A DNA stretch of 64,000 bases from the IMG/VR virus record IMGVR_UViG_3300010149_000001, positions 1 to 64,000 of that record; one strand, given 5' to 3'. How positions within the stretch are numbered: position 1 is the first letter of the stretch; each line of letters opens with the position of its first letter. Shown piece by piece: positions 2,523 to 64,000 of the stretch. Both the position numbers and the translations under genes were made by a program. The notes beneath the pieces were generated by a model, which saw only the letters and a list, made by a program, of their open reading frames with translations, had not been told where the DNA came from and did no database searches. Origin of the DNA: a virus.

Positions 2523-2791
2523 TTCAGATGGATGAGGTCGAACTCACCAGCGATATGATTCCAGATTCTCTGGTCTTTGACGATGATAAACGAGATGTCT
2601 ATGCCGCTAAGGTTCAGAACAAAAAATGTCCAAAATGCCAGCGACCAGATTCTGAGGTTTGGGAGTTCATATTGAAGCCGATACACCAGCATCCAAATCA
2701 TCTGCTGATTCATCGGGGCGAAAACTCCTGTGGCTGGAGGTCATCAACAATTGATTTGATGAAACCAGACGGCTGGACAATTAAGGAATGA
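2519..2791 (+). CDS. Small Zn-finger protein
   Basis: CPKC...H...C; overlapping start/stop. Confidence 0.6.
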   Translation: MIQMDEVELTSDMIPDSLVFDDDKRDVYAAKVQNKKCPKCQRPDSEVWEFILKPIHQHPNHLLIHRGENSCGWRSSTIDLMKPDGWTIKE

Positions 2792-3261
2792 AACCATTCA
2801 GATTCAGGAGTGTTTATATCCTGTGGCTTTCTGGAATGGTCATGCACGATTATCTGAATGGCATCAAATACAGCCTCAGAACCAAGAGGTTCACCACAGA
2901 CAACCCACGAGTTCTGTATATTGGCAACACCTCATCCACCGTCAAGAAGGCTCTTGATAGTGGAGTTATGCTGAACAAAGCAACCTCTCAAGCAACAATC
3001 CTATTCCCATCTGGACACCGACATGAATACATCTGCTATCAAAAAGGAGATGCGCTTCGCACTTTCAAGGCTGAATATGCGTGGCTCGTCATCGTCTTTG
3101 ACAAGAACAACGACATCGTTGCATTCGGTGATGAAGGCGATGGACATATTGACAACGATATATTCATTGGTCGCTCTGGTGCATGTGAATATGTCAAAGG
3201 TCATGTCGAGTATCATCTCAACGACACAGACATGCCTCTGCAACCATATCTGGATAATTGA
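2788..3261 (+). CDS. Hypothetical protein
   Basis: 157-aa ORF, ATGA overlap. Confidence 0.6.
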   Translation: MKPFRFRSVYILWLSGMVMHDYLNGIKYSLRTKRFTTDNPRVLYIGNTSSTVKKALDSGVMLNKATSQATILFPSGHRHEYICYQKGDALRTFKAEYAWLVIVFDKNNDIVAFGDEGDGHIDNDIFIGRSGACEYVKGHVEYHLNDTDMPLQPYLDN

Positions 3262-3318
3262 GGAACTTAACCATTGAGATTAAGCAACCTTCTTATACTG
3301 CCACGCCCAGCGTTGGGT

Positions 3319-3702
3319 ATGGGCGGCACAGTTTTCACCTTCGTTTCAGCGTCGGTTGACGATGTTGAGCCAGCCCATGCTGATGTCAAGAACCATCACA
3401 TAACACTCAAGTTCAGACCATCTGACGCTGATGTTGATGCAACCCCATTCGGTGCTTCTTGCTGGTGGGTTGCCACAGGCAGAGTCATCACAGACGATGT
3501 TGATGCGGTTCTGGTTGAGTTCGTTGGCGGCGACATTCACGCATGTGATGTTGCTTCTGGAGTTCCTCACATCACCATCTCAGTTCGTGATGGAGTTTCA
3601 CCAGCAAAATCCATTGACGCTATTCGCCACGCCATCGCTACTGACACCGTTCAGCCGTTCAAAGCATTTGGTCATGGAACTGTGGACAGACTTGCTTCTT
3701 GA
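3319..3702 (+). CDS. 2H phosphoesterase
   Basis: Two HxT motifs (HHITL, PHITI) about 55 aa apart; leaderless ATG after a class-E promoter. Confidence 0.75.
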   Translation: MGGTVFTFVSASVDDVEPAHADVKNHHITLKFRPSDADVDATPFGASCWWVATGRVITDDVDAVLVEFVGGDIHACDVASGVPHITISVRDGVSPAKSIDAIRHAIATDTVQPFKAFGHGTVDRLAS

Positions 3703-3729
3703 TAACGGTGGGCGGTGTGTCCCGTCAAC

Positions 3730-5724
3730 ATGACCGTTGAAGTTCGCCAATCTGCTCAATCAGCATCTCGCTATGAAGCAACGCTGGCGGGTATGGATAT
3801 TGCCTTCATATTCCTGTCATCTGCGAAGGGTCGGATGGACTTCACCGTCGAACACGATGGCAAGCCTCTGGGCAAATACAATGTCCTATCACAGCACTCT
3901 CTGGGTCGTCTGGCAAAGGCTCTCAAACTTGATGAGGACACGAAGGAGACATTCATCGCTGAATCTCTGACCGCTGGAATCCACTTGCGAGATGGCGAAT
4001 ATGTGCCAGCCCCAATTCCAGACAGGATTGAAATTGAAGTCAGCGAGTATGAGGGCAGAAGTTCATCATTCGGAGTTATTGACACCGATACAACCGCAGA
4101 GTTTCTGAGCCAGCCAGATTTGCTGGACAGAATCAACGACATTCTGCATAACAGTCGTGAAACTCCATTCGTCGGAGATGATGCGAATCTGCTTCTGACA
4201 TTCTTGGTTTTCTTGTCGTGCAAGACTGAGAAGCCACTCAATCTGGAGATGATTGGTGCTTCGTCGTCTGGTAAAACATATCTGACTCTGACCGCCAGAA
4301 ACGGATTCCCCAAGTCCATGTGTATGGTCTTGGCTGGTGCATCCAAAGAGGCTCTCAAGTATGACTATGACGAGGTGTCTGAGGATGGAGAGTTCATCGT
4401 CAATGTAGCCAATCGTTGCATCGTGATTCTGGAGAAGGATGAGTCGTTTGCATTCATCAGAAGGATGAAGCCGTTGATGTCTGGAGATGACACAGAACTT
4501 GTCTGGAAAACTCCAATCAAGAATGAGATGACAGGCGAGATTGAGACCAGAGACTTCATCATCAGAGGACAACCATCCTTCATCACATTGACCACTCGCA
4601 ACCCATCTGAGGCTGAACAAATCACCAGACAATTGCTGATGACACCAGAGACCACACCAGACAAAATTGAGAATGTTGTTGCCAACACTCTGCTGGCAAA
4701 GGCTCGCCCAGAGGACTTGTCCATTCACCCAGATTTGCATCTGCTTCAAGCGTCAATGCTCAAACTCAAACAACGCAGAACACGCAACATATTCGCACCA
4801 TTGATGGCTGAGTTTTTCCCAGCCACATCTGCGAGCCACCAAAGAGACATCAACAAAGTTCTGTCCATCATTGATACAATCACGCTTCTTCACCAGAAGC
4901 AAAGACCGACGCACAAGATTGGCGAGACAACCTATGTATTGAGTTCGATAGAGGATAATGTGCTGGGATTGATTCTGTGCGACTTGGTTCTGAGGGCATC
5001 TCTGTCTGGAGTTCCAGAGGATTCGTGGTTGATTATGAATGAGATGAAGAAAATGTCAGAATCGAATCGCACTTTGTCAGAGGATAACATACTCCAATGG
5101 TTGCACATTCACGCATTCCAATGCTCTAAGAACGCCCTCAAGGAGAAGCATTTGCCAACCCTTGCTGACTCTGGCTTGATTGAAGTCAAGCGTCGTGGAG
5201 GCGGCAGAGGGGGCGGCAGAAAGACATGGGGCATTGTCAAGACCAGAGCAGGTCTGATGGAGACCTATGCTCTTGCACCATTGTTCATTGAATCCGTCAG
5301 AAAGAATCTCCCATCTGTGATGTTGGAGTTCGATGACATTCTGTCCAAGTGCATCGCATCAGAATCTCTGGCGAAACTTCTGGACAACGATGCTGACTTA
5401 TTGAAGTCAATAGGTTGCTCAAGCAAATCCGATTCCAAAATCTGGCGAAGTTTGGTTCTGCCAAAGTATCTGACCAAGAAGGCCAGAGGTATTTTCTATG
5501 ACATCGTTGGAGACAATGCACACAGACCGACTTTGTTTGGTCAGCGATGTTCATGGCTTGACACCAGCATCAAATCCAAAGCAACAGATGAACTTGAGGC
5601 TCACAGAGAAGTCCGTGAGAAGGTTCAGAAGGTGGTTCAGTCAAGCGATACAGGTGGCGAGGATATGTGGGAACACATCGCAAATGCACACCTTGACGGT
5701 TTTGATTCTGAGTATTCTGCTTGA
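3730..5724 (+). CDS. AAA+ (MCM-like) putative replicative helicase with C-terminal winged helix
   Basis: Walker A GASSSGKT, Walker B-like VILEKDE, sensor-like ITLTT, TR finger; heads the replication module. Confidence 0.6.
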   Translation: MTVEVRQSAQSASRYEATLAGMDIAFIFLSSAKGRMDFTVEHDGKPLGKYNVLSQHSLGRLAKALKLDEDTKETFIAESLTAGIHLRDGEYVPAPIPDRIEIEVSEYEGRSSSFGVIDTDTTAEFLSQPDLLDRINDILHNSRETPFVGDDANLLLTFLVFLSCKTEKPLNLEMIGASSSGKTYLTLTARNGFPKSMCMVLAGASKEALKYDYDEVSEDGEFIVNVANRCIVILEKDESFAFIRRMKPLMSGDDTELVWKTPIKNEMTGEIETRDFIIRGQPSFITLTTRNPSEAEQITRQLLMTPETTPDKIENVVANTLLAKARPEDLSIHPDLHLLQASMLKLKQRRTRNIFAPLMAEFFPATSASHQRDINKVLSIIDTITLLHQKQRPTHKIGETTYVLSSIEDNVLGLILCDLVLRASLSGVPEDSWLIMNEMKKMSESNRTLSEDNILQWLHIHAFQCSKNALKEKHLPTLADSGLIEVKRRGGGRGGGRKTWGIVKTRAGLMETYALAPLFIESVRKNLPSVMLEFDDILSKCIASESLAKLLDNDADLLKSIGCSSKSDSKIWRSLVLPKYLTKKARGIFYDIVGDNAHRPTLFGQRCSWLDTSIKSKATDELEAHREVREKVQKVVQSSDTGGEDMWEHIANAHLDGFDSEYSA

Positions 5725-7119: not shown

Positions 7120-7164
7120 GGTGTGCGTAAGCACTTCATATAGGTGGTAAAACGAGGGATTGTT

Positions 7165-8093: not shown

Positions 8094-9278
8094 ATGAAAG
8101 TTCCATACATCTCAGCGACACGACTCAAAATGGCAAAGGATTGCACTCTTGCGTATGAGTTTCAGTATGACCCAAGTGGCGAATCTGAACGCATTCTCAA
8201 GAAGAAATCCAACCACCCAGAGAACACTCAAGCGGCTCGCTTGGGGAACATTGTTCACGGTGCGCTTGAGGATTGGAGATTGCCAGATGCAAAGACAGGC
8301 AAACCAACCAAGCCAAAGTTTGGTGCATTGATGCGCCATTATGAACTCTGGGCGGCAAAGCCAGAGTTCGCTGTGGACTTTGAGTTCTATCAAGACGGCA
8401 AACAGATGCTCAAGCGATGGTTTGACCGCAGAGGCAAAAGCCCTGTCCGTGTCTATGCAACAGAGCAACCGATGGGTCAACATAACGCACCATTCATTCT
8501 GGACAATGGAGTCCCTATCTATGGATTCATTGACTTGATTCTTGAGCATAAGGATGGCACGATTGAACTCGTGGACTACAAGACCAACCGATTGCATAAG
8601 ACTCAGAATGAAGCAGACACCGATGTTCAAGCGGGGATATACCTCTCTTGGGCGAGGCAGATGTTCCCAGACAGACCACTCAGATTCACCTTCGATATGA
8701 TTCGCTGGAGTCCTGTATCAACCGTCTGGACTGACGAACAGATTGACTCATTCGGTGGTTGGCTCAAGGCTCAGTATGAATCCATCAAGGTTCTGGATAA
8801 GGGCAAAGCAACGCTCGGAGATTCGTGCAAATGGTGTGCGTATCAGAGCATCTGTCCAGAAGTTCAGACGCTGATATTCAAGGGCGCATTCGACCTCGTT
8901 GCATCTGACTTTGACAATGACGATGAACAATTGGATGCTCTGGCAACCATCAAGGCGGCTCAAGGAATCCTCAACAAGCGAAGGTCGGTCATTGAAAAAG
9001 AACTCAAGGGCAGACTGAATCCACTTGACCACACAGAGACTATCGAGACCGATACATGGTCTGTGGAATACATCAAGAAGGAACGCTCTGAGTTCATTCC
9101 ATCTGAGGTTCAACGAATTGTTCCACCAGCGGTGTTTGGACAAATCACATCTCTGAGCAAAGCGGCTGTCGAGCGTGTGTTGCCTATCCTCCCAGAAGAG
9201 ATGGCGAAGCGTGTCATGGACACTCAAATCAAGAAACCATACAACGCCATGACCATCAAGCGCAAGAAACAGGACTGA
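8094..9278 (+). CDS. PD-(D/E)XK Cas4/AddB-like exonuclease
   Basis: GNIVHGALE, GFID...DYKT, QxxxY, CKWC...CP (Fe-S ligands). Confidence 0.85.
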   Translation: MKVPYISATRLKMAKDCTLAYEFQYDPSGESERILKKKSNHPENTQAARLGNIVHGALEDWRLPDAKTGKPTKPKFGALMRHYELWAAKPEFAVDFEFYQDGKQMLKRWFDRRGKSPVRVYATEQPMGQHNAPFILDNGVPIYGFIDLILEHKDGTIELVDYKTNRLHKTQNEADTDVQAGIYLSWARQMFPDRPLRFTFDMIRWSPVSTVWTDEQIDSFGGWLKAQYESIKVLDKGKATLGDSCKWCAYQSICPEVQTLIFKGAFDLVASDFDNDDEQLDALATIKAAQGILNKRRSVIEKELKGRLNPLDHTETIETDTWSVEYIKKERSEFIPSEVQRIVPPAVFGQITSLSKAAVERVLPILPEEMAKRVMDTQIKKPYNAMTIKRKKQD

Positions 9279-9330: not shown

Positions 9331-9678
9331 GTGGCAGAGGACAAACCAGACGACAACGAAGTCCCATCATCCAAGTATGGGACACGCAGGTTTGGTCGCT
9401 TAGGTCGTCATGATGGGCGCAACATCAAGCGGCTATGGAAGGCCATGATACAGGCTGGGGCTGTCCATCCAGACGGCAATCCGCTGTCATCCACAGAGGT
9501 TCTGAACCTGCCCAACCAACCATTCTCTATGAACGCCTTGACCAACCACTTGGCGAACAAACCCTATCTCTTCGTTGAGATGGGCAGAGTTCGTGTCGCT
9601 GGTCTGGATGGCAAAACGACTTATGACCAATCCACATGGGTTGCTCGCCCAGATGCTTTTGACCATTTGAAAAAGTGA
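9331..9678 (+). CDS. Hypothetical protein, possible winged-helix DNA binder
   Basis: 115 aa with helix-helix-beta-hairpin pattern ending ...STW. Confidence 0.55.
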   Translation: MAEDKPDDNEVPSSKYGTRRFGRLGRHDGRNIKRLWKAMIQAGAVHPDGNPLSSTEVLNLPNQPFSMNALTNHLANKPYLFVEMGRVRVAGLDGKTTYDQSTWVARPDAFDHLKK

Positions 9679-9837
9679 ATCTGTCAATTTTGACAGAAAA
9701 TCGTTTGCTCAAAAAATGGAACTCTGGAGGTTTGCACTATCCGCATATCGGTGTCAATATGCAAGACCCCCCAAAAGCAAGGAACAAAACCATTGAGATT
9801 GCGACATCTTCATATACCCCTAAGCCCACGCAAGGAT

Positions 9838-11472: not shown

Positions 11473-12651
11473 ATGATGCCCAGATTCAAGGACTTCGACA
11501 GGCTCTGTCATCATCTGGGATTCTCAACATTCCCTCGCTCAATCGGCAATCCTCGTCAGAACTTCACATACACGACTGAGGACATCTGGAGTCAGATGCG
11601 AAAGTGGAATGGCGAATCCTCGTGCTTCATCTCGACTCAAGGATATGAGAACCTAATCTATGAGCAGGGCGGCAGACAAGTGCCTCGCTCAATCATCTAT
11701 GGTCTGACATTCTTTGACTTCGACCACGAGACAAAAGCAGAGAACGCCTTTGCTGATGCCCAGAGATTGAGTCAGTTCCTTCGCCAGCATAATGTCGCAC
11801 ATTGGGTGCAATACAGCGGCTCTAAGGGGTATCATTTGCAGATAGTCCACGAGCCAACCAGATTCAAGTTTGACCCTAAAGACGGGTCAGCAGAGAACCT
11901 CAGAGAGATTATTCACCAAGTCCAAGCACATCTGAAAACCACACTTGGTCTGAACACATTGGATGCTCAAACAATGGGCGACCCAAAGCGACTTTGCAGA
12001 ATGCCGTTCACAGCCCATGTTGACAGACACGGCAAAACCTCTGGGCGTTATGCGACACCTATTGAACTCGATACGCTGGATGAAGTCAGCCATGATGAAA
12101 TCGTGAAATCAGCAACCACTCCAAACTTCTTTTTCCCAACAATCTCTGGAGACAAACTGAATCTCAAGGACTTCATTGATTTGATTGGGGTCAATCTGTC
12201 AGCACCAGAGACCAGAATCAAACCGATGATTGAGTATGACTTTGGATTCAACGATGTCAAATCAGAGACAGCCAGATTCCTCGCCAGCATGGACAACAAG
12301 TGCATGGGCGTGGTCAATGAACTCAAGAGAAGGAATCCCAATCATAAGGCCAGAGTTCACTCAGCGATGTTTGCCAAGAGCATTGGCATCACTCCAGAAG
12401 CCTTTGAACGCATCTGGGTATCAATCGGTCAGAAGGTTGGATATGTGGACTTGCATAACGCTGAGTATCGTGCGTTTCAGATGGCATCCATCTTTGACAA
12501 CGAGCGTATGACAACGCCAGCATCATGCTCAACACTCAAGCGAGATGGTTGCTGTGTCGGTGCTATCTGTCCCAAGTTCAAGGACACAGAAGAGTTCTAT
12601 GCAGACCAAGAATCAAGCAGAAAAATCAAACGAAGGTGGCGAAAAAAATGA
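11473..12651 (+). CDS. Archaeo-eukaryotic primase, PriS fused to a PriL-like Fe-S domain
   Basis: FFDFD, YSGSKGYH, DPKRLCRMP; C-terminal C...SCSTL...CC...CP. Confidence 0.85.
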   Translation: MMPRFKDFDRLCHHLGFSTFPRSIGNPRQNFTYTTEDIWSQMRKWNGESSCFISTQGYENLIYEQGGRQVPRSIIYGLTFFDFDHETKAENAFADAQRLSQFLRQHNVAHWVQYSGSKGYHLQIVHEPTRFKFDPKDGSAENLREIIHQVQAHLKTTLGLNTLDAQTMGDPKRLCRMPFTAHVDRHGKTSGRYATPIELDTLDEVSHDEIVKSATTPNFFFPTISGDKLNLKDFIDLIGVNLSAPETRIKPMIEYDFGFNDVKSETARFLASMDNKCMGVVNELKRRNPNHKARVHSAMFAKSIGITPEAFERIWVSIGQKVGYVDLHNAEYRAFQMASIFDNERMTTPASCSTLKRDGCCVGAICPKFKDTEEFYADQESSRKIKRRWRKK

Positions 12652-13508
12652 GCAGAAAGACAAAGAAAAAGACGGACTTCTTGAAGTCAGATGACGAGAT
12701 TAACGACAGACTTGATGGCAATCTGAGTCAGCGACTTGGATTGTTGCGAGCAATCATGTCAGAACTGAATATCGAATGGGCGGATATTGGACTCAATACT
12801 CTGTCTGGCAAGAATCTGGTCAGCAGGGCTGGCGCAGAACAAATCGGCACAGCAATTGTTGGTGAACTTCTGGGTCGCCAGCGAAAGGTTGACCATCGTG
12901 AACATTGGCTCATCAAGTCATATCTGGCTGGACTTGGATTTGAAATCAGCCACCTTCACACAGGACAGGGCGATGTTGCATCCAGCAAGGTCAGCATCGA
13001 GCGAAAGGAGGATGACCTTCTGCCATCACTCTTTGACGACAGGAGGCTCAGACAATTGGGGGCTATGCGTGAAGAAGCAGAACACTCATTCATCGTCATC
13101 ACCAAGTCATGGGAGGACATCAAACGAGATGCGGCTGAGAAGAATATGTCAACCAGAACTCTGCTTGGCTACATCGCCAGCCTTTGCTCAATCGGCTATC
13201 CTCCGATATTCATGCCAGACCATTATGATGCGGCGAATCTGATGCACAGAATCGTTGAAAAAATCGAGGATGACAAGACCAGAATGTATGTTCCCAGACC
13301 CAAAGCACCCAAGCCCAAAGAGTATCGAGATGCGATGGTTGAGGCTCTGCCAAAGGTCGGCTATCAGACCAGAAAGAAACTGATTGAGAAGTTTGGTTCT
13401 CTGGCTGGGATTGCCAACGCAACCGTTGAGCAGTTCAAGGAGATTGAAGGAATCGGTTCTGCCACAGCAGAGAAGGTTTATGCTGTATTCCACGAGGGAG
13501 ACCTATGA
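12648..13508 (+). CDS. ERCC4/XPF-family nuclease with HhH2
   Basis: GD...IERKEDDL..S..D.R..Q; PKVG and EGIG HhH motifs. Confidence 0.85.
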   Translation: MSRKTKKKTDFLKSDDEINDRLDGNLSQRLGLLRAIMSELNIEWADIGLNTLSGKNLVSRAGAEQIGTAIVGELLGRQRKVDHREHWLIKSYLAGLGFEISHLHTGQGDVASSKVSIERKEDDLLPSLFDDRRLRQLGAMREEAEHSFIVITKSWEDIKRDAAEKNMSTRTLLGYIASLCSIGYPPIFMPDHYDAANLMHRIVEKIEDDKTRMYVPRPKAPKPKEYRDAMVEALPKVGYQTRKKLIEKFGSLAGIANATVEQFKEIEGIGSATAEKVYAVFHEGDL

Positions 13509-14335
13509 GCAAGAAGTTCATCATCCACAGGCGAGACAAGTTCAACGCTGGAGACATGGCATCATGTCCCAAGCAGTATTTTGAATGGCTTGACGATTGG
13601 CAGGTCATTGACATCACAGGAATCCAATGGTTCAATCTCAACGATTCTCATGTGATTCTGGGAGGTGGAGGACTTCTCTATGACGACTTTGAGCCGTTCA
13701 TGATGAAAATACTTGGGTCAAGATTGAGGTCGCTCACACTCTGGGGAATCGGCAGAAACCGACACGGCAGAGATGACACAGACCTGCCCAGATTTGGTCA
13801 GATGTTGCTGGACAAAGCAGACTTGGTTGGACTCAGAGATTGCATGATTCACGATGATTGGATTCCCTGCCCATCTGTGATGCACCATCTGTTTGATGAA
13901 CCGATGAAAAAGAATGGCAAAATGGCTGTCCAGCACAGAGAGGACAGGTTCAGATGGAAACCACCAACCGACTTCATGGAGGTCAAAATGCAAGGCAACA
14001 TTGATGCTCTGATTGAAGAGATTGCCAGCGCAGAGGTTGTCATGTCATCGTCATATCACGGTGCGCTCTGGGGGCTATGTGCGGGTGCAAGGACATGCTC
14101 TGTCAATGGATTCAGTCAGAAGTTCAAACATGGATTGCCTCACACAGTTTTCCACACAGAAGTTCATGACACAGCAAACAAGAATTGGATGACTCCATCC
14201 TTCTTTGATTCGATTCCAGAAAACAAAACTTGGCTGGCAGAAGCCAGAAAGCGCAGTATCGAGTTCAATACGCAAGTGCAAGAACTCGTTTCCAGAACCG
14301 ACTTCTCGATTTATGACCACACTCTGAACAAATGA
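13505..14335 (+). CDS. Polysaccharide pyruvyl-transferase-like (GT-B fold) protein
   Basis: NAGD, GGGGLL, WGIG, GLRD, PCPS, SSYHG. Confidence 0.7.
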   Translation: MSKKFIIHRRDKFNAGDMASCPKQYFEWLDDWQVIDITGIQWFNLNDSHVILGGGGLLYDDFEPFMMKILGSRLRSLTLWGIGRNRHGRDDTDLPRFGQMLLDKADLVGLRDCMIHDDWIPCPSVMHHLFDEPMKKNGKMAVQHREDRFRWKPPTDFMEVKMQGNIDALIEEIASAEVVMSSSYHGALWGLCAGARTCSVNGFSQKFKHGLPHTVFHTEVHDTANKNWMTPSFFDSIPENKTWLAEARKRSIEFNTQVQELVSRTDFSIYDHTLNK

Positions 14336-33184: not shown

Positions 33185-33234
33185 TATTGAGTTCAATAAA
33201 GGTTCAAATAAGTGTGGCTGTGGTTTCAAAATCC

Positions 33235-43000: not shown

Positions 43001-43102
43001 ATCCTTCCGTGTGCATCCACCCTTATCAATGTATCTCAATCTCAATGCTTTTGTTCCCAATTCCAACACCGATTTAACCCGCCGACATATTGAAGTCAAT
43101 AC

Positions 43103-44286: not shown

Positions 44287-44688
44287 ATGGGAAAGAATGA
44301 CAAGTCTGTCAATGACAGAATGATGATGCTGGTCGGAGTGCCTGTTGTTCTTGCATGGATGGCATTTGCTTGTCTGGTCATCTGGTCTGGTCTCCAAGAC
44401 GATAAGGTCATGAACAACATTGACGGCTATACAACGCTCATCGCTATCATCGGCGGACCCGCCCTTCTGATTCTGACATCTATTCTGGAACTCTGGAAGT
44501 CTGAGCAGAATCAAGAGATAACTTCGATGCCAGAACATTGGGCTGGTCAAGCGACGGCGGCTGAAAATGAAGCAGTTCATCTCAGAAGTCTGGCTGACCG
44601 CCAAGCAATTCACATTCAGAAACTTGAGGCAGAAGCCCAGAAGGTTGCACTTGGTCTTATTGAGACCGATACACATTCAGAAGAGTGA
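44287..44688 (+). CDS. Two-TM membrane protein (holin-like candidate)
   Basis: Two hydrophobic helices followed by a coiled-coil. Confidence 0.65.
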   Translation: MGKNDKSVNDRMMMLVGVPVVLAWMAFACLVIWSGLQDDKVMNNIDGYTTLIAIIGGPALLILTSILELWKSEQNQEITSMPEHWAGQATAAENEAVHLRSLADRQAIHIQKLEAEAQKVALGLIETDTHSEE

Positions 44689-49708: not shown

Positions 49709-51241
49709 ATGCGAGCCGTATTGGTTGATGGAGATGACTACACTCAACGCTCTGGTGAGAGCAAAGAAGTCCAAATCAAACTTGAGGCTCAGATGCCATT
49801 CATCTTGGACAAATCATTCCAGAAGGATGCAGAGTCAGACTATGAATATGAGATTGGCGACGATGATGTTGTCATTCGTGGACCCGTCTATGTTGGGAAC
49901 TCAGATATGCTTGACCGACATAACGAACTCGTTGCGCCAGATGCGCTCATCAAATCATGGGGAGACTATCAGAAGAATCCCGTCATCCTATACAACCACT
50001 CTAAGACATACGGTGTCATCGGCAGAATGCTCGATGTCGAGATGGGAACTTGGGATGGCATCAAAGGTGAAGTTCCAATCGGCAGAGCCGTGATTGACGG
50101 TGGCGAAAAGGATATTGTCAGAAAAATACGCAAGGGATTCCTCAGAGCATTCAGTATTGGTTTCATCGCTAAGGCGGCAATCAAGGAATGCAAAGACGAT
50201 GAGACATGCTACATGACCTTCACAGAGGTTGATTGGCTTGAGACCAGCGTGGTTGATGTGCCAGCATCGCCCAACGCACTATTCAATGTTCAGAAGCATG
50301 TGCTTGGATATGAGGACATGGGTGAATCAATCGCTATCCTCTTTGAGAAGATGCCAATGGAATCACCATCAGAAGAACCCCCTGCTGGTGGAGATATGGA
50401 ATCGCCTGTTGAAGAATCGGCGGATTCTGGCTGTGGATGCAAATCACATATCGAGTCCGATACTCCAGAAACTGTTAGCGGCTTCGATTCTGAAATTGAC
50501 TCGTTGAAGGCTCAAATTGCTGAGATGAAAGAACTACTGCTCGCAAGTCTGACACCTTCTGAGTCCCAAAAGTCCGAATCTGAAAATACCGATTCACTTA
50601 ATACCCCCATTGACAAAGGCATTGGACAACAGGTGAACCAAATGACAGACGATACACTCATTGACACTCCAGAAGAAGAGGTCATCGTTGCCTCAGAGGA
50701 ACTTGAAGTTCCCACAGAAGAACTATCCATTAAGACAGAGGCTGTTGAAGAAGCAGAAGAAGTCGTTGAAGAAGCCGCAGAAGAAGTGGCAGAAGAAGAA
50801 CTCCCAGAAGAAGTCGTTGAAGAAGTCGCAGAAGCAACAGAAGAAGAATCTGCTGGCGAACCAACAACCACAGAAGTCATGATTGAAGTCGTTAAGGCAT
50901 TAGCAAATGTCGAAGCACGACTTTCAACCATTGAAGGACACATTAAATCAAGTGAGGACATTGACACACTCAAGTCTGAACTTGCATCCATGAAGGCTGA
51001 GAAGGAAGCCGCAGAAGCAGAAGCAAGCATTGAGGCAGAAGTCGCCAAGCGTGTTGCAGACCTTGTTGGGACAACCCCAGAGGTCAAGACTGTTGAAGCA
51101 TCTCCAAAGAGCCTCGCATCCACAGGAACAGAAGTTAAGAAAGCAAACCACACCCGCCACGACCCAACACCAACGGTCAGCAACGGTATGAATGGTCTGG
51201 CTGGATGGCTTGAAGTTCAAATCGCCAAGCGAGGTGCTTGA
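49709..51241 (+). CDS. HK97-type prohead protease fused to acidic scaffold
   Basis: LYNH..., FSIGF, ETSVVDVPA; E-rich C-terminal half. Confidence 0.92.
   Translation: MRAVLVDGDDYTQRSGESKEVQIKLEAQMPFILDKSFQKDAESDYEYEIGDDDVVIRGPVYVGNSDMLDRHNELVAPDALIKSWGDYQKNPVILYNHSKTYGVIGRMLDVEMGTWDGIKGEVPIGRAVIDGGEKDIVRKIRKGFLRAFSIGFIAKAAIKECKDDETCYMTFTEVDWLETSVVDVPASPNALFNVQKHVLGYEDMGESIAILFEKMPMESPSEEPPAGGDMESPVEESADSGCGCKSHIESDTPETVSGFDSEIDSLKAQIAEMKELLLASLTPSESQKSESENTDSLNTPIDKGIGQQVNQMTDDTLIDTPEEEVIVASEELEVPTEELSIKTEAVEEAEEVVEEAAEEVAEEELPEEVVEEVAEATEEESAGEPTTTEVMIEVVKALANVEARLSTIEGHIKSSEDIDTLKSELASMKAEKEAAEAEASIEAEVAKRVADLVGTTPEVKTVEASPKSLASTGTEVKKANHTRHDPTPTVSNGMNGLAGWLEVQIAKRGA
50642..51241 (+). CDS. 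Nested in-frame scaffold protein (199 aa)
   Basis: Internal class-L promoter at 50596 and AGGTGA SD at 50631 before an in-frame ATG. Confidence 0.65.
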   Translation: MTDDTLIDTPEEEVIVASEELEVPTEELSIKTEAVEEAEEVVEEAAEEVAEEELPEEVVEEVAEATEEESAGEPTTTEVMIEVVKALANVEARLSTIEGHIKSSEDIDTLKSELASMKAEKEAAEAEASIEAEVAKRVADLVGTTPEVKTVEASPKSLASTGTEVKKANHTRHDPTPTVSNGMNGLAGWLEVQIAKRGA

Positions 51242-52465: not shown

Positions 52466-53119
52466 ATGACAGCAACAGACTATTGCACTCTGGCTGAGGT
52501 TGAGGCTTATGCTGGCGTTGACTTTTCTGATGGAATGGGTCCGACGGACACTCAAATCGGGACAATGATAACGACAGCATCCAGACTCATGGATGCTTAT
52601 GCTGGAGTTCAATTCGCTGGGACTGAGAGTCATACAGAATACTTTGACACAGCATTCGGTCTGGCTTTCCTCACCCTTAGTCGGCGGCCTGTCGTGTCAA
52701 TCTCAAGTGTTCATTCAGTCTCGCCCAGCGGGGTTGAAACCCTCTTGTCTGATGGCCGTGTCGCCAACGATGACGACTATTATCTCCACGACCCAGATGC
52801 AGGGATTATTCGATTCCACTATGCCTTTCAAGAGGCACAGGGGTCAAGACTCAAGGTTGTCTATTCCTATGGGGCATCTGAGCCTCCAGCAGATGTGAAG
52901 ATGGCTACAATCCTCCATGTCGTGAGGTCAGCCGCACGAGCCGCCATGAATGATGAGAATTGCATGGATAGGGTCAAAGAGTTCTGGAAAAGTCTCATGT
53001 CTGATTCCAAACAAGAATATGAGGACTTGCTTGTTCAAGTCAAGTCCCATAAACTCGTGGCTGTTGCTTCTTGGGGTCAATACAAAATGCCATCCTCATT
53101 CTATTATCGGGGGTATTGA
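52466..53119 (+). CDS. Head-tail adaptor (gp6/gp15-like)
   Basis: YCTLAEVEAY, AS..MDAY, V.Y.YG...PADVK.A. Confidence 0.85.
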   Translation: MTATDYCTLAEVEAYAGVDFSDGMGPTDTQIGTMITTASRLMDAYAGVQFAGTESHTEYFDTAFGLAFLTLSRRPVVSISSVHSVSPSGVETLLSDGRVANDDDYYLHDPDAGIIRFHYAFQEAQGSRLKVVYSYGASEPPADVKMATILHVVRSAARAAMNDENCMDRVKEFWKSLMSDSKQEYEDLLVQVKSHKLVAVASWGQYKMPSSFYYRGY

Positions 53120-53121
53120 AC

Positions 53122-53634
53122 TTGGCAATCTCTGACAGGGGAACTCCAACAATTGACCCTCACACCACAATCAAGAACTTTATCGAGACCAATATGGATT
53201 CACCAGATGGAATCTGGAATCCTGTCGTCAACGCAGAATGGCTTGAGTTCAAGAAACAAAAGACATATCAGATTTGCATCACGCCCGTCTATGGCGAATC
53301 AGACGAAGCAGAACTGAATGGAATCTCTGGTCAAACTCAAATCAAGAGAATCAACACCCTGTATTTGAAAATCACACTTTTCGCCCCAACACGGTTAAAA
53401 CTGTGGGGTATGGTGCAGAAGTTCATGCTTGTTATGAACAACGGGACTCTATGCTATCCCTCAGCGGGTTTGGAGGCATCCACAGGCAACGGCTATCAAT
53501 ATGTCAGACTCGCAAGGTCTGATGAGACCAAAGAGGTCAAGGGCTATGAGCCAGAATGCGGACCCGAAGGTTCTGCTGACAAATGCGTTGGATTCAGAAA
53601 CGACTATACAATTGAAGTGAGGTTTGACGAATGA
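53122..53634 (+). CDS. Putative tail terminator / neck protein
   Basis: Position and alpha/beta pattern; TTG start after GGGG SD. Confidence 0.55.
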   Translation: MAISDRGTPTIDPHTTIKNFIETNMDSPDGIWNPVVNAEWLEFKKQKTYQICITPVYGESDEAELNGISGQTQIKRINTLYLKITLFAPTRLKLWGMVQKFMLVMNNGTLCYPSAGLEASTGNGYQYVRLARSDETKEVKGYEPECGPEGSADKCVGFRNDYTIEVRFDE

Positions 53635-54458: not shown

Positions 54459-55157
54459 ATGCCTTACAAAGACCCTGTAAAGCGCAAGCAATACAACAGC
54501 GACTATCATAAGAAGTGGTATCACAGGAACAAGTCTCAGAGGGTCGCACAGGTCAAGCAACGCAAGAAGCAGATTCGTGAGTGGATGCGCCAGATGAAAG
54601 AAGGCATGGCATGTTCCAAGTGTGGCTTGTCTGGCATGGAGAATGCTTGGGCTTTAGAGTTCCATCATAAGAACCACGAGGACAAGGACACCATCGTGTC
54701 GAGTCTGGTCTCTGCTGGCTCAAGCAAGAAGCGCATCCTTGAAGAGATTGCCAAGTGCGAAGTCATCTGCTCAAACTGCCATCGCAAGGAACATTATCTG
54801 GAACATCGCAAGGCACTTGAGACAGGCCAAGATTCCATCTGGATTGCCGCTGGCAAGGCTGGTGCAGACAACCAGATGTTTGCCAATGACTTGATGACAT
54901 CATCCAAGCGAAGGCGGCGCAAGAGGCGCAAGCAACGAAGCCAGAATCAGAAGTCGGGTCCAGATATGCAGGTTCATGATGACCTCGACACATTCACCAG
55001 AAAATTGGAACAAGGCGCAACGCTGACCAGCAAAGAAGTCAAGAGAATGAAAGGTTTGATTCTGAGGCTCAGAAAAGGTGAGCAGATGGAGGGTGAGATT
55101 GAAGAGTTCATGGATATTGAACCCGATACCGACATAAACCCAGAATCAGAATCGTGA
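54459..55157 (+). CDS. HNH endonuclease
   Basis: CSKCG...LEFHH...EIAKC.VICSNCHR.EH. Confidence 0.88.
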   Translation: MPYKDPVKRKQYNSDYHKKWYHRNKSQRVAQVKQRKKQIREWMRQMKEGMACSKCGLSGMENAWALEFHHKNHEDKDTIVSSLVSAGSSKKRILEEIAKCEVICSNCHRKEHYLEHRKALETGQDSIWIAAGKAGADNQMFANDLMTSSKRRRRKRRKQRSQNQKSGPDMQVHDDLDTFTRKLEQGATLTSKEVKRMKGLILRLRKGEQMEGEIEEFMDIEPDTDINPESES

Positions 55158-55160: not shown

Positions 55161-56357
55161 ATGGGCAGAATATCTGGTGCGAACTCTCTGATGAGATTTG
55201 CCAGAACCATTCCCCAATGGCAGAATGCAACCAGACGAGTCTGGAATCCAGCATCAATATCGTGGAAACCACTCGCAACCACAGGTTCTGATTCGTTTCT
55301 AATGGGTCAAAGCGGCGTTGATGTAGTATTCCCAAATGTGTCATCTGGCATCGAATACACCATCTCATTCTGGATTAAGCCCAGAGCAATCACAGGTGCA
55401 AAAGGACTGATGCAATTAGAAAATGCCGCTGGAGTTCCTCAAGTATCTCTGACCATGAACGGTTCTGGAATTGACATGATGTGGGACAACGACCCAGCGA
55501 CAGTCGTGAGTTCAACGGGTCTTATTAGCCTCAATACATGGAATCACATTCTGTTCCAGAACTATGACAACGGATGGAACATCATGGTCAACGGCACAGA
55601 CCAATCTGGGTTTCTGACCGCTGGCTGTCCAGACTTCTCTCTGATAACTCAATGGAGAGTCGGCAGAGGAACTGATGGAACTCTCGCAACCGAATCCTTT
55701 GATGGATTGATGTCAGACATCATGGTTGCTCAAGCATATCCAAATTATACCCATAGAACGGTGCTATACAACGACGGTGCGGCCTTCAACATGGCTCAGA
55801 CGGCCACAGCCCCTGTCAACCCTCTAAACGGCTCTATGACCTTCTTATGCGATGGAACAGACACAGGAACTCCATCATATCTGGGAATGTCCAGAATGGC
55901 ATCTGTCAACCTCAGTCCACAGATTCAGACAGCGGCGTTTTTCGCTTGGACAGGAAACCTTCTCAACACTCCAGATTTAGATACAGCGAGCAGACCAGCG
56001 GCATCTGGAACAACATACAGTCGTCTGGCACAGATGGCTCAAGGATGGTGCAATAACCTGCCCAGAGACACCATACAAGGCACGACATTCGCCCCAATGC
56101 CCACAGGTGAGACAATCCCAAGAGATGCCCCTGCGCTTGGCGCATGGCCGTTTTCTGGATATGGAGTCAAGACGGGTGCTTCATCATTCGTGGGTCTGGT
56201 GGATGCACCAGACGCAACACCCGAATTAACGGTGCAGGGAGACCTCTCAGAGCCAGCAACGGTATTGAACCCTGTGGTGGGTGCTGGAACTCTCCAACAC
56301 GCTCTGGACACACGCAGAGTGCGATTCCTCAGACCGACCTTTGCCAAGAAGGTCTGA
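55161..56357 (+). CDS. LamG/concanavalin-domain virion protein
   Basis: TISFWIKP, WNHI, VNG, F.G.MSD; class-L promoter. Confidence 0.8.
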   Translation: MGRISGANSLMRFARTIPQWQNATRRVWNPASISWKPLATTGSDSFLMGQSGVDVVFPNVSSGIEYTISFWIKPRAITGAKGLMQLENAAGVPQVSLTMNGSGIDMMWDNDPATVVSSTGLISLNTWNHILFQNYDNGWNIMVNGTDQSGFLTAGCPDFSLITQWRVGRGTDGTLATESFDGLMSDIMVAQAYPNYTHRTVLYNDGAAFNMAQTATAPVNPLNGSMTFLCDGTDTGTPSYLGMSRMASVNLSPQIQTAAFFAWTGNLLNTPDLDTASRPAASGTTYSRLAQMAQGWCNNLPRDTIQGTTFAPMPTGETIPRDAPALGAWPFSGYGVKTGASSFVGLVDAPDATPELTVQGDLSEPATVLNPVVGAGTLQHALDTRRVRFLRPTFAKKV

Positions 56358-57166: not shown

Positions 57167-57244
57167 AATTATCAGACTCCAGAGTCGGTTTATCAGCGTA
57201 TTCACGCCAATACCGTTAAAACCCCTCACGGATGACCAAGACCC

Positions 57245-58017: not shown

Positions 58018-58171
58018 ACCCCTGCGTGGGAGTTCCCCCTTATAATATCTTCTCAATCTCAATGGTTTTGTTCCTAATTCCCACCTTATTGAAGTCAATA
58101 CACACCATATTGGTCAGAATAATTGAGATTCCTCCGAAGCCTTGAAGTCCTATCGTGGTTCACACCCCAAC

Positions 58172-60876: not shown

Positions 60877-60880
60877 ACTC

Positions 60881-63178
60881 ATGGCTATCAAAGAAGAGTT
60901 CAAACTGTCAATGTTGGTCGAGGCCAATACTGACAGATTCAAGAAAGGAATGTCAGAAGTCAATCAAGGTCTGGCGGCTTCTGGTGGCAAAATGGGCAAG
61001 ATGGCTCGCATGGGCAAATTGGGTTTTGCCGCTATCGCCACAGCCGCTGTTGCCGCAGGTGCGGCCATTGGAATTGCTTTCATAATGAAGTCAATACAGA
61101 AGTTCGTTGAGTTTGAGGAAACTCTGTTCAGAATCGCCGCCATCTCTGGTGAAACAGGTCTGGCTGGAATTGACCCACTCAAGAACAAAATCATGGAACT
61201 TGGTGCGGCCACCAAGTCAACCACGACTCAAGTGGCTGAGGCGGCAGAGATTCTGACTCTTGCTGGCTTCTCAATGGAGGAAATGATTGGAGATGAGTCA
61301 TCTGGAACGCAAGGTGCGCTTGAGGCTCTGAACAATTTTGCGATAGCGGCTGGAACAGATTTGCCAAACGCCGCTGGAATCGCCATCGCCACGATGAAAG
61401 GTATGGGCAAAGAAGCATCTGAACTCAGAAACATCACAGATATTCTGCTCAATACGCAAGCAAAGACATTCACCACAGTCAACGACTTGGGCGAATCCAT
61501 GAAGTTCCTCGCACCAACGGCGAGAGCATCTGGAATTGCACTTGAAGAAGCGGCGGCGGCGGCAGGTATTCTGGGAGATGCAGGTCTGAAAGGTTCAATG
61601 GCTGGAACAGCCTTGCGTATGGCAATCACGAAACTGCTCAAGCCTTCTGACGATGCCAGAAAATTGATGGAGGATTTGGGACTTGACTTCTTCACATTGA
61701 CTCCAGCAGGTCAAGCGGCAAAGAGCGCACTCAGAGAAGTCAGTCGTGGCTTAGAAGCCAGCAAACTTGCGGCTGAATCCACCAATGCTCAATTGAAAAT
61801 ACTGAACTCAGAACTCAACGAGATGAGCATTGAGCAACAGACAAACAGTCTGGCGATAATGAAAATCAAGCGCAGAGCAGAGAAGGAGGGCAGGGAACTC
61901 AACAAGAGAGAACTTGACCAAATAAGCCGTCTGGAGGGTGCTAATGCAGACCTCAACATCACGATGGCTGAGAAGCGCATAACACAGCAACAAGTCAACA
62001 CAGAGGCTTCTAAGAACAACGAACTCGTGTCTGAACAATCAGCACTATTCTCAGACCTCAACAAACAGGTTGCTGGTCAGACAACAGGTATCACTTCTCT
62101 ATCCGATGTATTCCAACAATTGGGTGCGGCTGGTGCAACGACCAACCAGATGCTGGAGATATTCGGCATTCGTGGTGGAACAGCGGCGATGGCTATGTTG
62201 GCAAATGCCGATGCTCTGGATGAATTAACGGCTTCAAACTTTGCCGCACAGGATGGAATGGGGCGAACCTCAGAACAAATTGCTGTGATGGAACAATCTG
62301 GTGCATTCGCTCTGGCATCTCTGAACTCAAAGTTTGAATCATTCATGCTCATGGTCGGTGAGGTATTCACCCCGATATTGGTTGACAAGGTTATCCCAGC
62401 ACTCATCAAGTTCATTGACGAGGCTCTGATTCCAATGTTGCCAGCATTCCAAGCACTTGCTGAACAGATGGGAGATGTGTTGCCAGATTTGCTGGAGGCT
62501 CTTGTTCCATTATTCCTTGTTCTGGCTGAGGTGATTATCGCTCTCGCACCAATTCTGAAACTCACAGCGATGACAGTTCAATTGCTGATGTTTGTTCTCA
62601 AACCGTTCCTTGATTTGCTGGGCGGTATTGCAGAGATGCTGACCGCCATATTTGACCAAGATGCAGAGGCATTCGGTGAAGGTATGAAGCGAGCATTCGG
62701 TGGCCTTCTCAGAATCCTGTTCCCTGTCCTTCACGCTCTGGAGGGCATATTCGGATTCCTTGACAGCACAGGCAACAGCGTTGACGAAGCAACAGGCATG
62801 AACATCAGCGGTGCGGCCAAAGGTGCGGCTGTGGGTGCTGTGGTCGGCGGACCCGTTGGTGCGCTGGTTGGTGCTGGAATTGGAATGGCCTTCTTTGCAG
62901 AGGGTGGAATCGTCAACAGCCCAACATTGGGAATGGTCGGAGAAGCAGGTTCAGAAGCAATCATGCCGATTGACAAAATTGACGGCATCATGGCATCTGC
63001 TCTCCAACGAGCAGAAACGGGTGGAACAGGTGGCAACAAGACGACTCTCAACATATCGGGTGGAATATCCATTGGTGAGGGCAATAACCTCAATAAGCGA
63101 GATGTCCGTGATGCAGTTAGACAAGCGTTGTCAGATGTGGCTGGCATGAAGTCGAGTGGTGCGAGAGGCGTGATTTGA
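60881..63178 (+). CDS. Tape measure protein
   Basis: TP901-like TMP core (DLGESMKF.AP.A...LEE.AAA.GIL..AG.KGS.AGT.LR); FAEGGIV..PT..MVGEAG.EA.MP. Confidence 0.93.
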   Translation: MAIKEEFKLSMLVEANTDRFKKGMSEVNQGLAASGGKMGKMARMGKLGFAAIATAAVAAGAAIGIAFIMKSIQKFVEFEETLFRIAAISGETGLAGIDPLKNKIMELGAATKSTTTQVAEAAEILTLAGFSMEEMIGDESSGTQGALEALNNFAIAAGTDLPNAAGIAIATMKGMGKEASELRNITDILLNTQAKTFTTVNDLGESMKFLAPTARASGIALEEAAAAAGILGDAGLKGSMAGTALRMAITKLLKPSDDARKLMEDLGLDFFTLTPAGQAAKSALREVSRGLEASKLAAESTNAQLKILNSELNEMSIEQQTNSLAIMKIKRRAEKEGRELNKRELDQISRLEGANADLNITMAEKRITQQQVNTEASKNNELVSEQSALFSDLNKQVAGQTTGITSLSDVFQQLGAAGATTNQMLEIFGIRGGTAAMAMLANADALDELTASNFAAQDGMGRTSEQIAVMEQSGAFALASLNSKFESFMLMVGEVFTPILVDKVIPALIKFIDEALIPMLPAFQALAEQMGDVLPDLLEALVPLFLVLAEVIIALAPILKLTAMTVQLLMFVLKPFLDLLGGIAEMLTAIFDQDAEAFGEGMKRAFGGLLRILFPVLHALEGIFGFLDSTGNSVDEATGMNISGAAKGAAVGAVVGGPVGALVGAGIGMAFFAEGGIVNSPTLGMVGEAGSEAIMPIDKIDGIMASALQRAETGGTGGNKTTLNISGGISIGEGNNLNKRDVRDAVRQALSDVAGMKSSGARGVI

Positions 63179-63179
63179 T

Positions 63180-64000
63180 ATGGCAACATTCAAGCAAGAC
63201 ATCATCGCACCATTCTCACGCAGATTGAATGGTCTGTGCGAGATTCAGAAGTGGTTTCCAGCGTATATCAAGAATGATGGTGTCTATGGAATATCGGTTG
63301 ACCCTGTTCTATTCTCAACCACTTTCAATCCAAACCTCAAGGCTCTGACAGGCGACGGTCTTGATGACGAATCCAGAACTGCTGGAATCAGAGTCGAGAT
63401 GATAAATCACGATGGCTCAACACCATCTGGGACTCCAACCATCCAGATTCTTGGCTCTGGAACTCTCGACGCTCGATGTGTCATCACTTGGGAGGACAAC
63501 AGCAAGACTGAGTTCAGATTCGTCGCACCCAGCGGAGATGTCAAATTGGCAAATGTGTATGGGATGCAGAACCACGCTGGGGCTGGCGGTATGGAACAAG
63601 GGATTGACACCAGCCCAGACACTCCAACGATGAACTATTCAGCGGGCCCATATCCCGTTTTCATCACACTCCAAGAGTTCGCTTCGTGGCTCGATGGCAA
63701 CATCAACAGATTCGACAAAGCGTTTGTTGATGCGGCTGGACTTATTTTTTCTGACCAATCAACAAAGGATGCTTGGTTGCCATTTGGTTTAATCACACCA
63801 ACCACATCGTCAAATCCAGAGGCTCACCTCGACCCCCGTATTGACTCCAATAACAACGACCCAATTCCTTACCAGAGCAAAATGTGTGCCACACTCTGGA
63901 TGCCGATGTTGTATGACAACAATCAGATGGAAAAAACGCAAGGCTCTGGGACAAGCAACGACATCGTGCAAGGTGCTTGGGATGGTTCTGCGGCTGAGGA
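63180..64000 (+). CDS. Partial tail-tip/baseplate protein
   Basis: ATG 63180 immediately after the TMP stop; frame appears open to the window end (absent from ORF track because truncated). Confidence 0.65.
   Translation, partial: MATFKQDIIAPFSRRLNGLCEIQKWFPAYIKNDGVYGISVDPVLFSTTFNPNLKALTGDGLDDESRTAGIRVEMINHDGSTPSGTPTIQILGSGTLDARCVITWEDNSKTEFRFVAPSGDVKLANVYGMQNHAGAGGMEQGIDTSPDTPTMNYSAGPYPVFITLQEFASWLDGNINRFDKAFVDAAGLIFSDQSTKDAWLPFGLITPTTSSNPEAHLDPRIDSNNNDPIPYQSKMCATLWMPMLYDNNQMEKTQGSGTSNDIVQGAWDGSAAE

Follow-up and report, generated by a model that had tools for sequence, protein, structure and literature searches.

The DNA considered here is the first 64 kb (hereafter, the window) of virus record IMGVR_UViG_3300010149_000001, an 81,676-bp genome with a 123-bp terminal repeat that we label G000. 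At about one site per 2.3 kb it carries a 14-bp palindrome, TATYGR-NN-YCRATA (search pattern TATYGRNNYCRATA; class A below), and this lattice of sites is real and strongly selected. There are 28 exact matches in the window, while 100 dinucleotide shuffles gave a mean of 0.03 and a maximum of 1. The whole record holds 36, compared with 0 for a reversed control pattern. All 28 starts listed in the original prediction, which was made from the sequence alone, proved correct, and its uniform-base estimate of 0.06 sites is of the right order. Our favored explanation, which as a whole we hold to be somewhat better than an even bet, is that the palindrome is the docking site of a two-fold-symmetric viral DNA-binding protein, the candidate reader being the 157-residue product of the gene at 26905..27378.

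A fixed-spacing dyad selected at the DNA level

When half-sites were paired as inverted repeats over the whole record, a spacer of 2 bp gave 36 sites and spacers of 0, 1, and 3–8 bp gave 0 each. The enrichment is confined to the 2-bp spacer. Taken singly, the half-site patterns occur 101 and 109 times, and their direct or everted arrangements only 0–1 times. With zero or one mismatch, the window holds 42 sites compared with 0.90 expected. The 14 one-mismatch copies among them include the eight noticed previously, all of which are real; that list was, however, incomplete, and the six copies that it lacked are marked in Table 1. The outer TAT...ATA is retained in 12 of the 14, and TAT-N8-ATA occurs 69 times in the whole genome, compared with 6–18 times at spacers of 3–13. 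Besides the 36 strong sites we count about 20 weaker ones, many with a TATTC half-site, and the part that all have in common is the outer TAT-N8-ATA frame.

The internal variation of the sites was compared between G000 and two relatives, G001 and G002, whose family B DNA polymerases (PolB) are 80% and 66% identical to that of G000. Positions 4 and 11 vary independently in all three genomes (Fisher P = 0.71, 0.26, and 0.14), in line with the earlier statement that the two half-sites do so. That statement does not extend to positions 6 and 9, where the base-pairing combination G..C is missing in G000 (0/7) and G002 (0/10). Perfect inverted repeats make up only 9/36, 4/33, and 8/35 of the sites in G000, G001, and G002, respectively. 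The lack of covariation at positions 4 and 11, the missing G..C at positions 6 and 9, and the small number of perfect repeats disfavor a hairpin. The spacer, described earlier as free, is roughly so, but 28 of 36 sites have AC, AG, GT, or GA there, a bias that is probably due to coding constraints; the flanks of the sites have no information content. Strict spacing and dyad symmetry without hairpin covariation fit a symmetric dimer on double-stranded DNA, in agreement with the original preference for a dimeric operator, and we predict with considerable confidence that the motif is the docking site of a dimeric protein.

The sites are also spaced more evenly than expected. The coefficient of variation (CV) of the gaps is 0.54 in G000, 0.60 in G001, 0.55 in G002, and 0.60 in G052 (a relative with a re-spelled motif, described below), as opposed to 0.96 for random placement (P≤0.0013). 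In these four genomes, which have strict YGR-type motifs, the smallest gaps are 126–601 bp and the largest 4.8–6.9 kb.

Even spacing, which bounds the distance between sites, and small maximal gaps of 5.5–6.9 kb would also suit sites of replication or recombination, at which the dyads would load or stop the PrimPol-like protein, the XPD-like helicase, the ERCC4 and PD-(D/E)XK nucleases, or the FtsK/HerA-like ATPase, whether as multiple origins, as priming sites, or as barriers to end resection. Palindromes read alike from either direction, and the replication module has the candidate reader gene at its end. However, a signal acting in single-stranded form would not have to be a dyad, and nothing was found that connects those enzymes with the motif. 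Moreover, sites are not in excess at homology breakpoints between relatives in four comparisons (P = 0.30–0.97). The median-distance P values are 0.30, 0.47, 0.35, and 0.27, and 6, 5, 2, and 3 boundaries lie within 150 bp of a site, compared with 4.6–5.9 expected. We have therefore rejected the sites as recombination boundaries and consider this whole group of explanations improbable. One X11 contig begins at 4937, a single case to which we give no weight.

Most sites (32 of 36) lie inside + strand genes, nearly all genes being on the + strand, and they occupy the three codon phases 20, 11, and 1 times. The original prediction held that the motif is not a protein artefact because it occurs in two reading frames, one of which forces uncommon codons, and both points hold. 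The codons forced by one phase are rare genome-wide: ATA accounts for 14% of the codons for Ile, TTA and CTA for 3% and 4% of those for Leu, and GTA for 4% of those for Val. When synonymous codons were shuffled in every gene (n = 1000), the mean number of matches fell to 2.9 and the maximum was 8; about 3 of the matches in these counts are intergenic sites, which the shuffling left untouched. Of the four sites that had been placed outside open reading frames (ORFs), those at 33185 and 58087 are indeed intergenic, while those at 9746 and 43088 are in ORFs that have no homologue in four relatives and may themselves be intergenic.

Comparison with relatives leads to the same result. The PolB peptide VIEV(D/N) is encoded by the motif in G000, G001, G002, and loci L010, L012, and L015, and by a motif-free spelling in L016–L021. 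At orthologous places that could be aligned, the motif is kept at 11/18 sites between G000 and G001, 7/10 between G000 and G002, and 8/11 between G001 and G002 (61–73%), whereas same-phase control 14-mers keep their letter pattern in 143/2180, 37/1115, and 40/1244 cases (3–7%). Across orthologous sites the fixed letters persist and changes accumulate at the Y, R, and spacer positions, and since some sites are lost and others newly arise elsewhere, the number per genome stays constant. Among the 40 listed of 161 variant positions in 2001–20000 (four runs, assembled contigs), none falls in a site. The motif is selected at the DNA level and is not a by-product of coding. Single sites in conserved peptides can nevertheless mimic it: at PolB alignment column 297, a conserved Y-D-I-P-Y-type peptide yields TAYGAYATHCCNTAY, which by coding matches class B (see below) or TAT-N8-ATA in many clades.

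The sites pay little regard to gene structure. There is no excess near gene ends (6 compared with 3.8 expected, P = 0.18) or gene starts (4 compared with 3.6, P = 0.50), the last quartile holds 12 sites compared with 8.0 expected (P = 0.08), and no association with promoters was found when we looked for it in G000. These results bear on stoperator-like silencing, in which bound dimers would block host RNA polymerase along the whole genome in a latent or carrier state, or during one stage of infection. The density is similar to that of stoperators, the sites extend across all modules, their even spacing would limit read-through, and the motif and the candidate protein are re-spelled together, as in immunity groups. 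However, stoperators are asymmetric and function in a single orientation, as far as the available text of PMC9283540 goes, while the sites here are dyads, mostly intragenic, with no link to gene ends or promoters, and the candidate's own promoter has no site. Neither was a tyrosine integrase (PF00589) detected in any of five viral genomes at E≤0.1 (positive control 14/14), although other integrase families were not searched. Silencing of this kind seems unlikely to us.

Related viruses keep or re-spell the motif

The gene set of G000 comprises a family B polymerase, two RFC-like clamp-loader proteins, a PrimPol-like protein, an XPD-like helicase, ERCC4/helix-hairpin-helix (HhH) and PD-(D/E)XK nucleases, a MoxR AAA protein, a CobT-like VWA protein, a GT4 glycosyltransferase, and portal, protease, capsid, and terminase proteins. 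The nearest cultured relatives of the polymerase are in haloarchaeal tailed viruses, at 22–23% identity. This content fits the Poseidoniales viruses as characterized in the text sections of PMC11706807 at our disposal, and the virus is a marine archaeal tailed virus with a putative Poseidoniales host.

The lattice belongs to a whole virus family, whose members have either this palindrome or a re-spelled one at similar density. G001 and G002 carry 33 and 35 class-A sites. G003 and G004 (about 53% PolB identity) have only 1 and 0 of these but carry another 14-bp dyad, TAMG-N6-CKTA (class B), 39 and 42 times at spacer 6 compared with 0–9 times at the other spacers from 0 to 12; in G000, G001, and G002 this second motif occurs 0, 0, and 1 times. 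A third spelling, TGTYGRNNYCRACA (class C), is class A with the second letter changed in both arms, and hence TGT-spelled. The group that bears it was located via homologues of the candidate reader: it is present 34 times in G052 (64.9 kb) and 5–10 times in each of five loci of 13–18 kb, and is absent from G000 and G053. Other clades have only the relaxed form TAT-N8-ATA, in excess over its control: 80 compared with 24 in G007, 25 with 2 in G008, 20 with 2 in G010, and 10 with 4 in G009. One clade, which we call clade 3 (L010–L012 and G006), is poor in sites of every kind, with TAT-N8-ATA 5 times compared with 1, and a single site each of classes A and C in 33 kb. No replacement motif was found in it; TACAGAC-like palindromes occur 3–4 times per 22 kb, too few to judge. 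In the class-B genomes G003 and G004, with CVs of 0.87 and 0.95, spacing is no more even than in random placement (P = 0.26 and 0.48); their motif is less informative, and the 0–9 chance matches per spacer dilute it.

Two kinds of palindromic signal were set aside in this search. GGWCC-N4-GGWCC, the strongest in G003 and G004, is a coding artefact of collagen repeats and is clustered at a 9-bp period, a periodicity by which genes of this type mimic a dispersed palindrome in naive motif scans. Large proteins with collagen triple-helix repeats are encoded at 30443–33184 of the window, at 3.9–10.2 kb of G003, and at 0.2–2.3 and 78.6–80.7 kb of G004. TATA-N12-TATA, in G003, and ACCTTNATATAGGT, in L017 and L018, have the look of promoter repeats in intergenic DNA and are separate from the lattice. 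Such palindromic, TATA-rich repeats, ACCTTNATATAGGT and TATATAAC...GTTATATA, occur in L017 and L018 (for example at 6266, 7219, 13092, and 15416 of L018) and in G003, which has 12 copies of TATAA-N8-TTATA, and they resemble clade-specific promoter elements.

A candidate reader and its competitors

We think it likely that the docking protein is virus-encoded. Two candidate binders had been named in the original prediction. The 26905..27378 protein is conserved, can be modeled as a homodimer, and has an architecture that tracks the motif class. The other, the 9331..9678 protein, is disfavored as the reader, because its putative recognition helix does not follow the motif classes, classes B and C having a nearly identical helix and class A sharing its helix unchanged with clade 3.

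Homologues of the 26905..27378 protein are present in all four complete relatives (72, 64, 35, and 35% identity), and its gene lies downstream of MoxR, RFC-like, and VWA genes in every locus reaching far enough. A search over 5.8 billion proteins returned 27 relatives, all annotated as 'hypothetical protein' and with no Pfam domain. Pfam winged-helix signals are below threshold (WH_MCM3_C at 2e-4 in 1 of 12 members, HTH_20 in 2, and Put_DNA-bind_N in 3), and the N-terminal part is, to judge from its sequence, probably a winged helix. The C-terminal ~50 residues follow the pattern strand-helix-G-x-helix. Modeled as a homodimer, the protein scored 0.48 compared with 0.00 for the best control, with contacts agreeing to at least 91% between runs and pLDDT of at least 74. 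The mark for the dimer score is reached by 20 of 30 proteins solved as one-chain pairs and by 1 of 23 solved as single chains. In the model the interface is confined to residues 108–154, and residue 114 meets residue 114 across the dyad in the strand KQITVNL (111–117). The arrangement may be that of a ribbon-helix-helix (RHH) protein, although the pass may simply reflect likeness to solved RHH dimers, which are well represented among structures. The block at 20721–25470 encodes a MoxR-type AAA protein (CbbQ_C), an RFC-like ATPase, and a CobT-like VWA protein. Its synteny holds in all relatives examined, always with the winged-helix gene after it, and the winged-helix proteins have acidic tails at their ends.

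The domain make-up of the candidate follows the motif class, with clade 3 as an exception. In classes A, B, and C the protein has the C-terminal extension, while in the TAT-N8-ATA clades it consists of the winged-helix part alone (89–103 residues), and RHH-like sequence was not found elsewhere in 17 such RHH-less loci at E≤5. Classes A and C have the inner YGR-NN-YCR and the strand QITV in common and differ both in the helix region (RKT..F and RGKT..Y, respectively) and in the outer triplet. Class B has the strand TISV and an unconstrained motif center. When a tree was built from the winged-helix part, class B came out as one group and class C as another, both on long branches, and the RHH-less clades as a third.

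Several observations weigh against this protein as the reader. Clade 3 (L010/G006) keeps it with an identical KQITVNL and full synteny, yet has nearly no lattice, while the RHH-less clades retain a fixed-spacing dyad, so that dimerization there needs another explanation. The match between reader and motif is not a statistical test, as it represents about four evolutionary events and kin share labels, and the divergence of the protein between classes A and B (35% identity) is unexceptional among core proteins. The RHH_1 profile (PF01402) found nothing in any of five genomes at E≤1. For the candidate and 11 relatives no Pfam family passes threshold and there is no RHH match at E≤1; the candidate has no sequence match in the PDB, and an atlas lead, HARE-HTH, scored 0.84, within the range of shuffled proteins. 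The promoter of the reader gene has no conserved site. Finally, as 44 of the proteins of the window and genome were scanned against Pfam or PHROGs, other DNA-binding proteins may exist. Balancing these points, we put the chance that the 26905..27378 protein is the docking protein at about even.

The behavior of clade 3 and of the RHH-less clades would also be accounted for if the dyads were docking sites for some other symmetric dimer, viral or host. Many core proteins have no annotation. Among viral candidates, besides the 9331..9678 protein already discussed, is the large unannotated core protein of 3715..5724. It belongs to a conserved block of five genes at 3715–9678, encoding an unannotated protein of 669 residues, a protein with a Rho_N/HeH domain, an FtsK/HerA-like ATPase, a PD-(D/E)XK nuclease, and a protein of 115 residues. 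Synteny of the block extends to G001–G004 and clade 3, and its genes may serve in end processing or recombination. The ERCC4 (XPF/Mus81-type) nuclease with a tandem helix-hairpin-helix tail at 12525–13508 is likewise conserved in all four relatives.

Motif classes could mirror different hosts, and the putative hosts were examined for the motif. A related terminase (67% identity) is on a contig of a 1.4-Mb metagenome-assembled genome (MAG) labeled Methanobacteriota archaeon, in which TAT-N8-ATA occurs 208 times compared with 169 for the control. The terminase-bearing contig (L051; G011:C10, 35.9 kb) also has several TAT-N8-ATA sites and is probably a related viral contig that was binned with, or is integrated in, the host genome. 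In 41 genomes of that MAG's family (1.3–2.2 Mb) the strict motif is present 0–13 times each and controls 0–4 times, a density two to three orders of magnitude under that of the virus. A small excess is left, mostly 1–6 sites compared with 0–2 for the reversed pattern. The low density makes the lattice a property of the viral chromosome. A host factor that organizes chromosomes should have a lattice in the host, where none is seen, and the ParB_N domain (PF02195) was detected in none of the five viral genomes searched in six frames at E≤0.1 (positive control 11/14). A host-encoded reader is disfavored, and we regard any reader other than our candidate, viral or host, as rather doubtful.

A chemical mark at each site is a further alternative, the dyad being the target of a dimeric methylase, a glycosylase-type base modifier, or a nickase. 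The outer A's of the two half-sites are on opposite strands at a distance of 11 bp, much as in bipartite methylase sites; a GT4 glycosyltransferase is among the core proteins; and the G000 ORF at 27266..28456, which overlaps the end of the candidate reader gene, matches N6_N4_Mtase at E = 9.6e-5, below the cut-off, with its residues 285–393 aligned to profile positions 2–107 of 221. However, this ORF has no credible homologue in G001–G004, where the one match covers 45 residues in G004 (E = 0.007), even though G001 and G002 share the lattice, and it was rejected as the cause. It may have been inserted in this lineage alone or be a broken gene. No methylase was found conserved wherever the motif occurs, the only methylase-like ORF being unique to G000, and targets of modification enzymes are normally neither enriched nor evenly spaced. 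We consider this alternative very improbable.

The ~36 strong and ~20 weaker sites are distributed over the viral chromosome fairly evenly and irrespective of gene boundaries. If the 26905..27378 protein is the reader, the following division of labor can be inferred. The protein would dimerize via its C-terminal RHH-like part and lay a beta-ribbon over the dyad center, YGR-NN-YCR, while the outer TAT/ATA triplets would be read by the two winged-helix domains of the dimer. In related lineages, the re-spelling (TAT, TGT, and TAMG-N6-CKTA) would have affected motif and reader together. Even, gene-independent placement and near-absence from the putative host-family genomes point to a virus-specific DNA mark rather than to promoter operators, and the same features, with the concerted re-spelling, argue for a role that concerns the whole chromosome. 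Its purpose could be that of a genome-wide self-mark, by which viral DNA as a whole would be organized, protected, or silenced or otherwise selectively handled. It is tempting to speculate that the acidic tail of the reader and its constant MoxR/VWA neighbors point to a loader or remover.

A more far-reaching possibility, which we offer tentatively, is a co-evolving 'genome barcode', in which each lineage has its own dyad and a matching modular reader (winged helix for the outer triplets, optional RHH ribbon for the center) that tells its own chromosome from those of the host and of co-infecting relatives. Lineages of a lytic archaeal virus would then form specificity groups like the incompatibility groups of plasmids or the immunity groups of phages, and the reader might be loaded or stripped by the adjoining MoxR-AAA/VWA pair.

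Table 1. Positions of the palindrome and of the two candidate readers in the window.
Feature	Position	Strand	Remark
Exact site TATTGAAGCCGATA	2670..2683		Pattern match
Exact site	4077..4090		Orthologous place kept in G001, G002
Exact site	4937..4950		Kept in G001
Exact site	5399..5412		Pattern match
Exact site	9041..9054		Pattern match
Exact site	9746..9759		Inside unconserved ORF, possibly intergenic
Exact site, PrimPol-like gene	12060..12073		Kept in G001, G002
Exact site, ERCC4/HhH nuclease gene 12525..13508	12785..12798		Kept in G001
Exact site	14257..14270		Pattern match
Exact site, PolB, peptide VIEVNT	17801..17814		Kept in G001, G002, L010, L012, L015
Exact site, PolB	19769..19782		Kept in G001, G002
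Exact site	22616..22629		Kept in G001
Exact site, 276 bp upstream of candidate reader gene	26629..26642		Pattern match
Exact site	28041..28054		Pattern match
Exact site	28699..28712		Pattern match
Exact site, intergenic, adjoins stop of collagen-repeat gene	33185..33198		Pattern match
Exact site	34904..34917		Kept in G002
Exact site	37254..37267		Pattern match
Exact site	38314..38327		Pattern match
Exact site, large terminase gene	42078..42091		Kept in G001, G002
Exact site, just upstream of ATG at 43103	43088..43101		Pattern match
Exact site	44658..44671		Pattern match
Exact site, portal-fusion gene	48353..48366		Pattern match
Exact site	50449..50462		Pattern match
Exact site	53181..53194		Kept in G001, G002
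Exact site	55115..55128		Pattern match
Exact site, intergenic, between divergent genes	58087..58100		Pattern match
Exact site	63839..63852		Pattern match
One-mismatch copy	3147..3160
One-mismatch copy	19181..19194
One-mismatch copy, TATTC half-site	30618..30631
One-mismatch copy, TATTC half-site	36000..36013		Absent from earlier list
One-mismatch copy	41679..41692		Absent from earlier list
One-mismatch copy	42194..42207		Absent from earlier list
One-mismatch copy	43810..43823		Absent from earlier list
One-mismatch copy, TATTC half-site	47492..47505
One-mismatch copy	47675..47688
One-mismatch copy, outer-triplet mismatch, weakest candidate	53069..53082		Absent from earlier list
One-mismatch copy	55523..55536
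One-mismatch copy, TATTC half-site	57199..57212
One-mismatch copy, outer-triplet mismatch, weak candidate	61083..61096		Absent from earlier list
One-mismatch copy, TATTC half-site	62364..62377
Best candidate reader, 157 residues	26905..27378	+	Probable winged helix N-terminal; RHH-like C-terminal ~108–154
Disfavored second candidate, 115-residue core protein	9331..9678	+	Putative recognition helix compared with motif class

Known systems of dispersed sites

The family offers unusual comparative handles: three mutually exclusive spellings at equal density, a relaxed form, one nearly lattice-free clade, and a small candidate reader that follows these states. The question of cognate preference, whether the class-A protein prefers TAT (e.g., TATTGAAGTCAATA) and the class-C protein TGT (cf. 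TGTTGAAGTCAACA), is tractable at the bench. The motif is also a strong sequence signature by which these viruses can be found and classified in metagenomes. If the lattice is a self-mark, it would bear on how self-DNA is recognized, on how related viruses avoid cross-talk, and on how essential genes tolerate imposed codons.

In the KorB-OB, ParB-parS, Noc-NBS, SlmA-SBS, and MatP-matS systems, dispersed 12–16-bp palindromes serve to label a replicon for a dimeric protein that acts globally. The comparison with these systems made in the original prediction is apt in that the sites described here, like those of the ParB, KorB, and Noc type, are a palindrome of this length present in several dispersed copies. 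It is, however, an analogy only: ParB_N is absent from the five viral genomes searched, the density is far higher, and the sites are written into coding sequence.

The layout of the sites recalls classical operators. Phage 434-type helix-turn-helix (HTH) repressors bind a 14-bp dyad, ACAA-N6-TTGT, and RHH repressors (Arc, Mnt, CopG, and RHH regulators of archaeal viruses) place a beta-ribbon over the dyad. As in these operators, the half-sites lie one helical turn apart around a variable center, and class B has the exact 4-N6-4 layout. Such repressors control a few promoters; the sites described here number tens per genome, and no association with promoters was found.

The original prediction knew of no such system in archaeal tailed viruses. 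We too found no such motif described for archaeal viruses in the literature, including the portions available of PMC5434244, PMC11706807, PMC8651126, PMC10160649, and PMC9516812, supplements aside. Closer analogues have been published for bacteriophages, namely dyad repeats in Cluster O and stoperators in Cluster A, and the novelty of the lattice is thus less than was first assumed.

The stoperators of Cluster A mycobacteriophages, exemplified by those of the immunity repressor gp71 of L5, are more than 20 asymmetric 13-bp sites at which the bound repressor acts as a roadblock to RNA polymerase; they are bound by a monomer and depend on orientation, according to the sections available of PMC9283540. 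Both systems have at least 20 copies of a 13–14-bp site and one phage protein with two DNA-binding domains (in our case a predicted one), and in both the motif and the protein diversify together. By the same partial account, stoperators are oriented with transcription, lie in short intergenic spaces, and belong to temperate phages, while the sites here are dyads and mostly intragenic, and no integrase was found. Asymmetric monomer sites and oriented or intergenic placement, which characterize Cluster A, are thus not seen in our virus, and neither is a tyrosine integrase.

The other close parallel is in the Cluster O mycobacteriophages (Corndog and relatives), which have more than 30 copies of a 17-bp dyad, TGTTCGG-NNN-CCGAACA, in genomes of about 70 kb. 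The parts of PMC4351075 available to us give its function as unknown and its authors predict a dimeric DNA-binding protein. As far as that text goes, the two cases agree in having more than 30 copies of one short dyad in a tailed virus that is not obviously temperate, with no tie to promoters and with some copies intragenic. The Cluster O repeats are in bacterial phages, about two thirds of them lie between genes or close to a gene start, and their density is higher at one end of the genome. In contrast, the sites described here are intragenic in 32 of 36 cases and evenly spaced, they have re-spelled versions in relatives, and their candidate reader is of another kind. The lattice reported here thus extends genome-wide dyad lattices from bacteriophages to abundant uncultured viruses of marine archaea.

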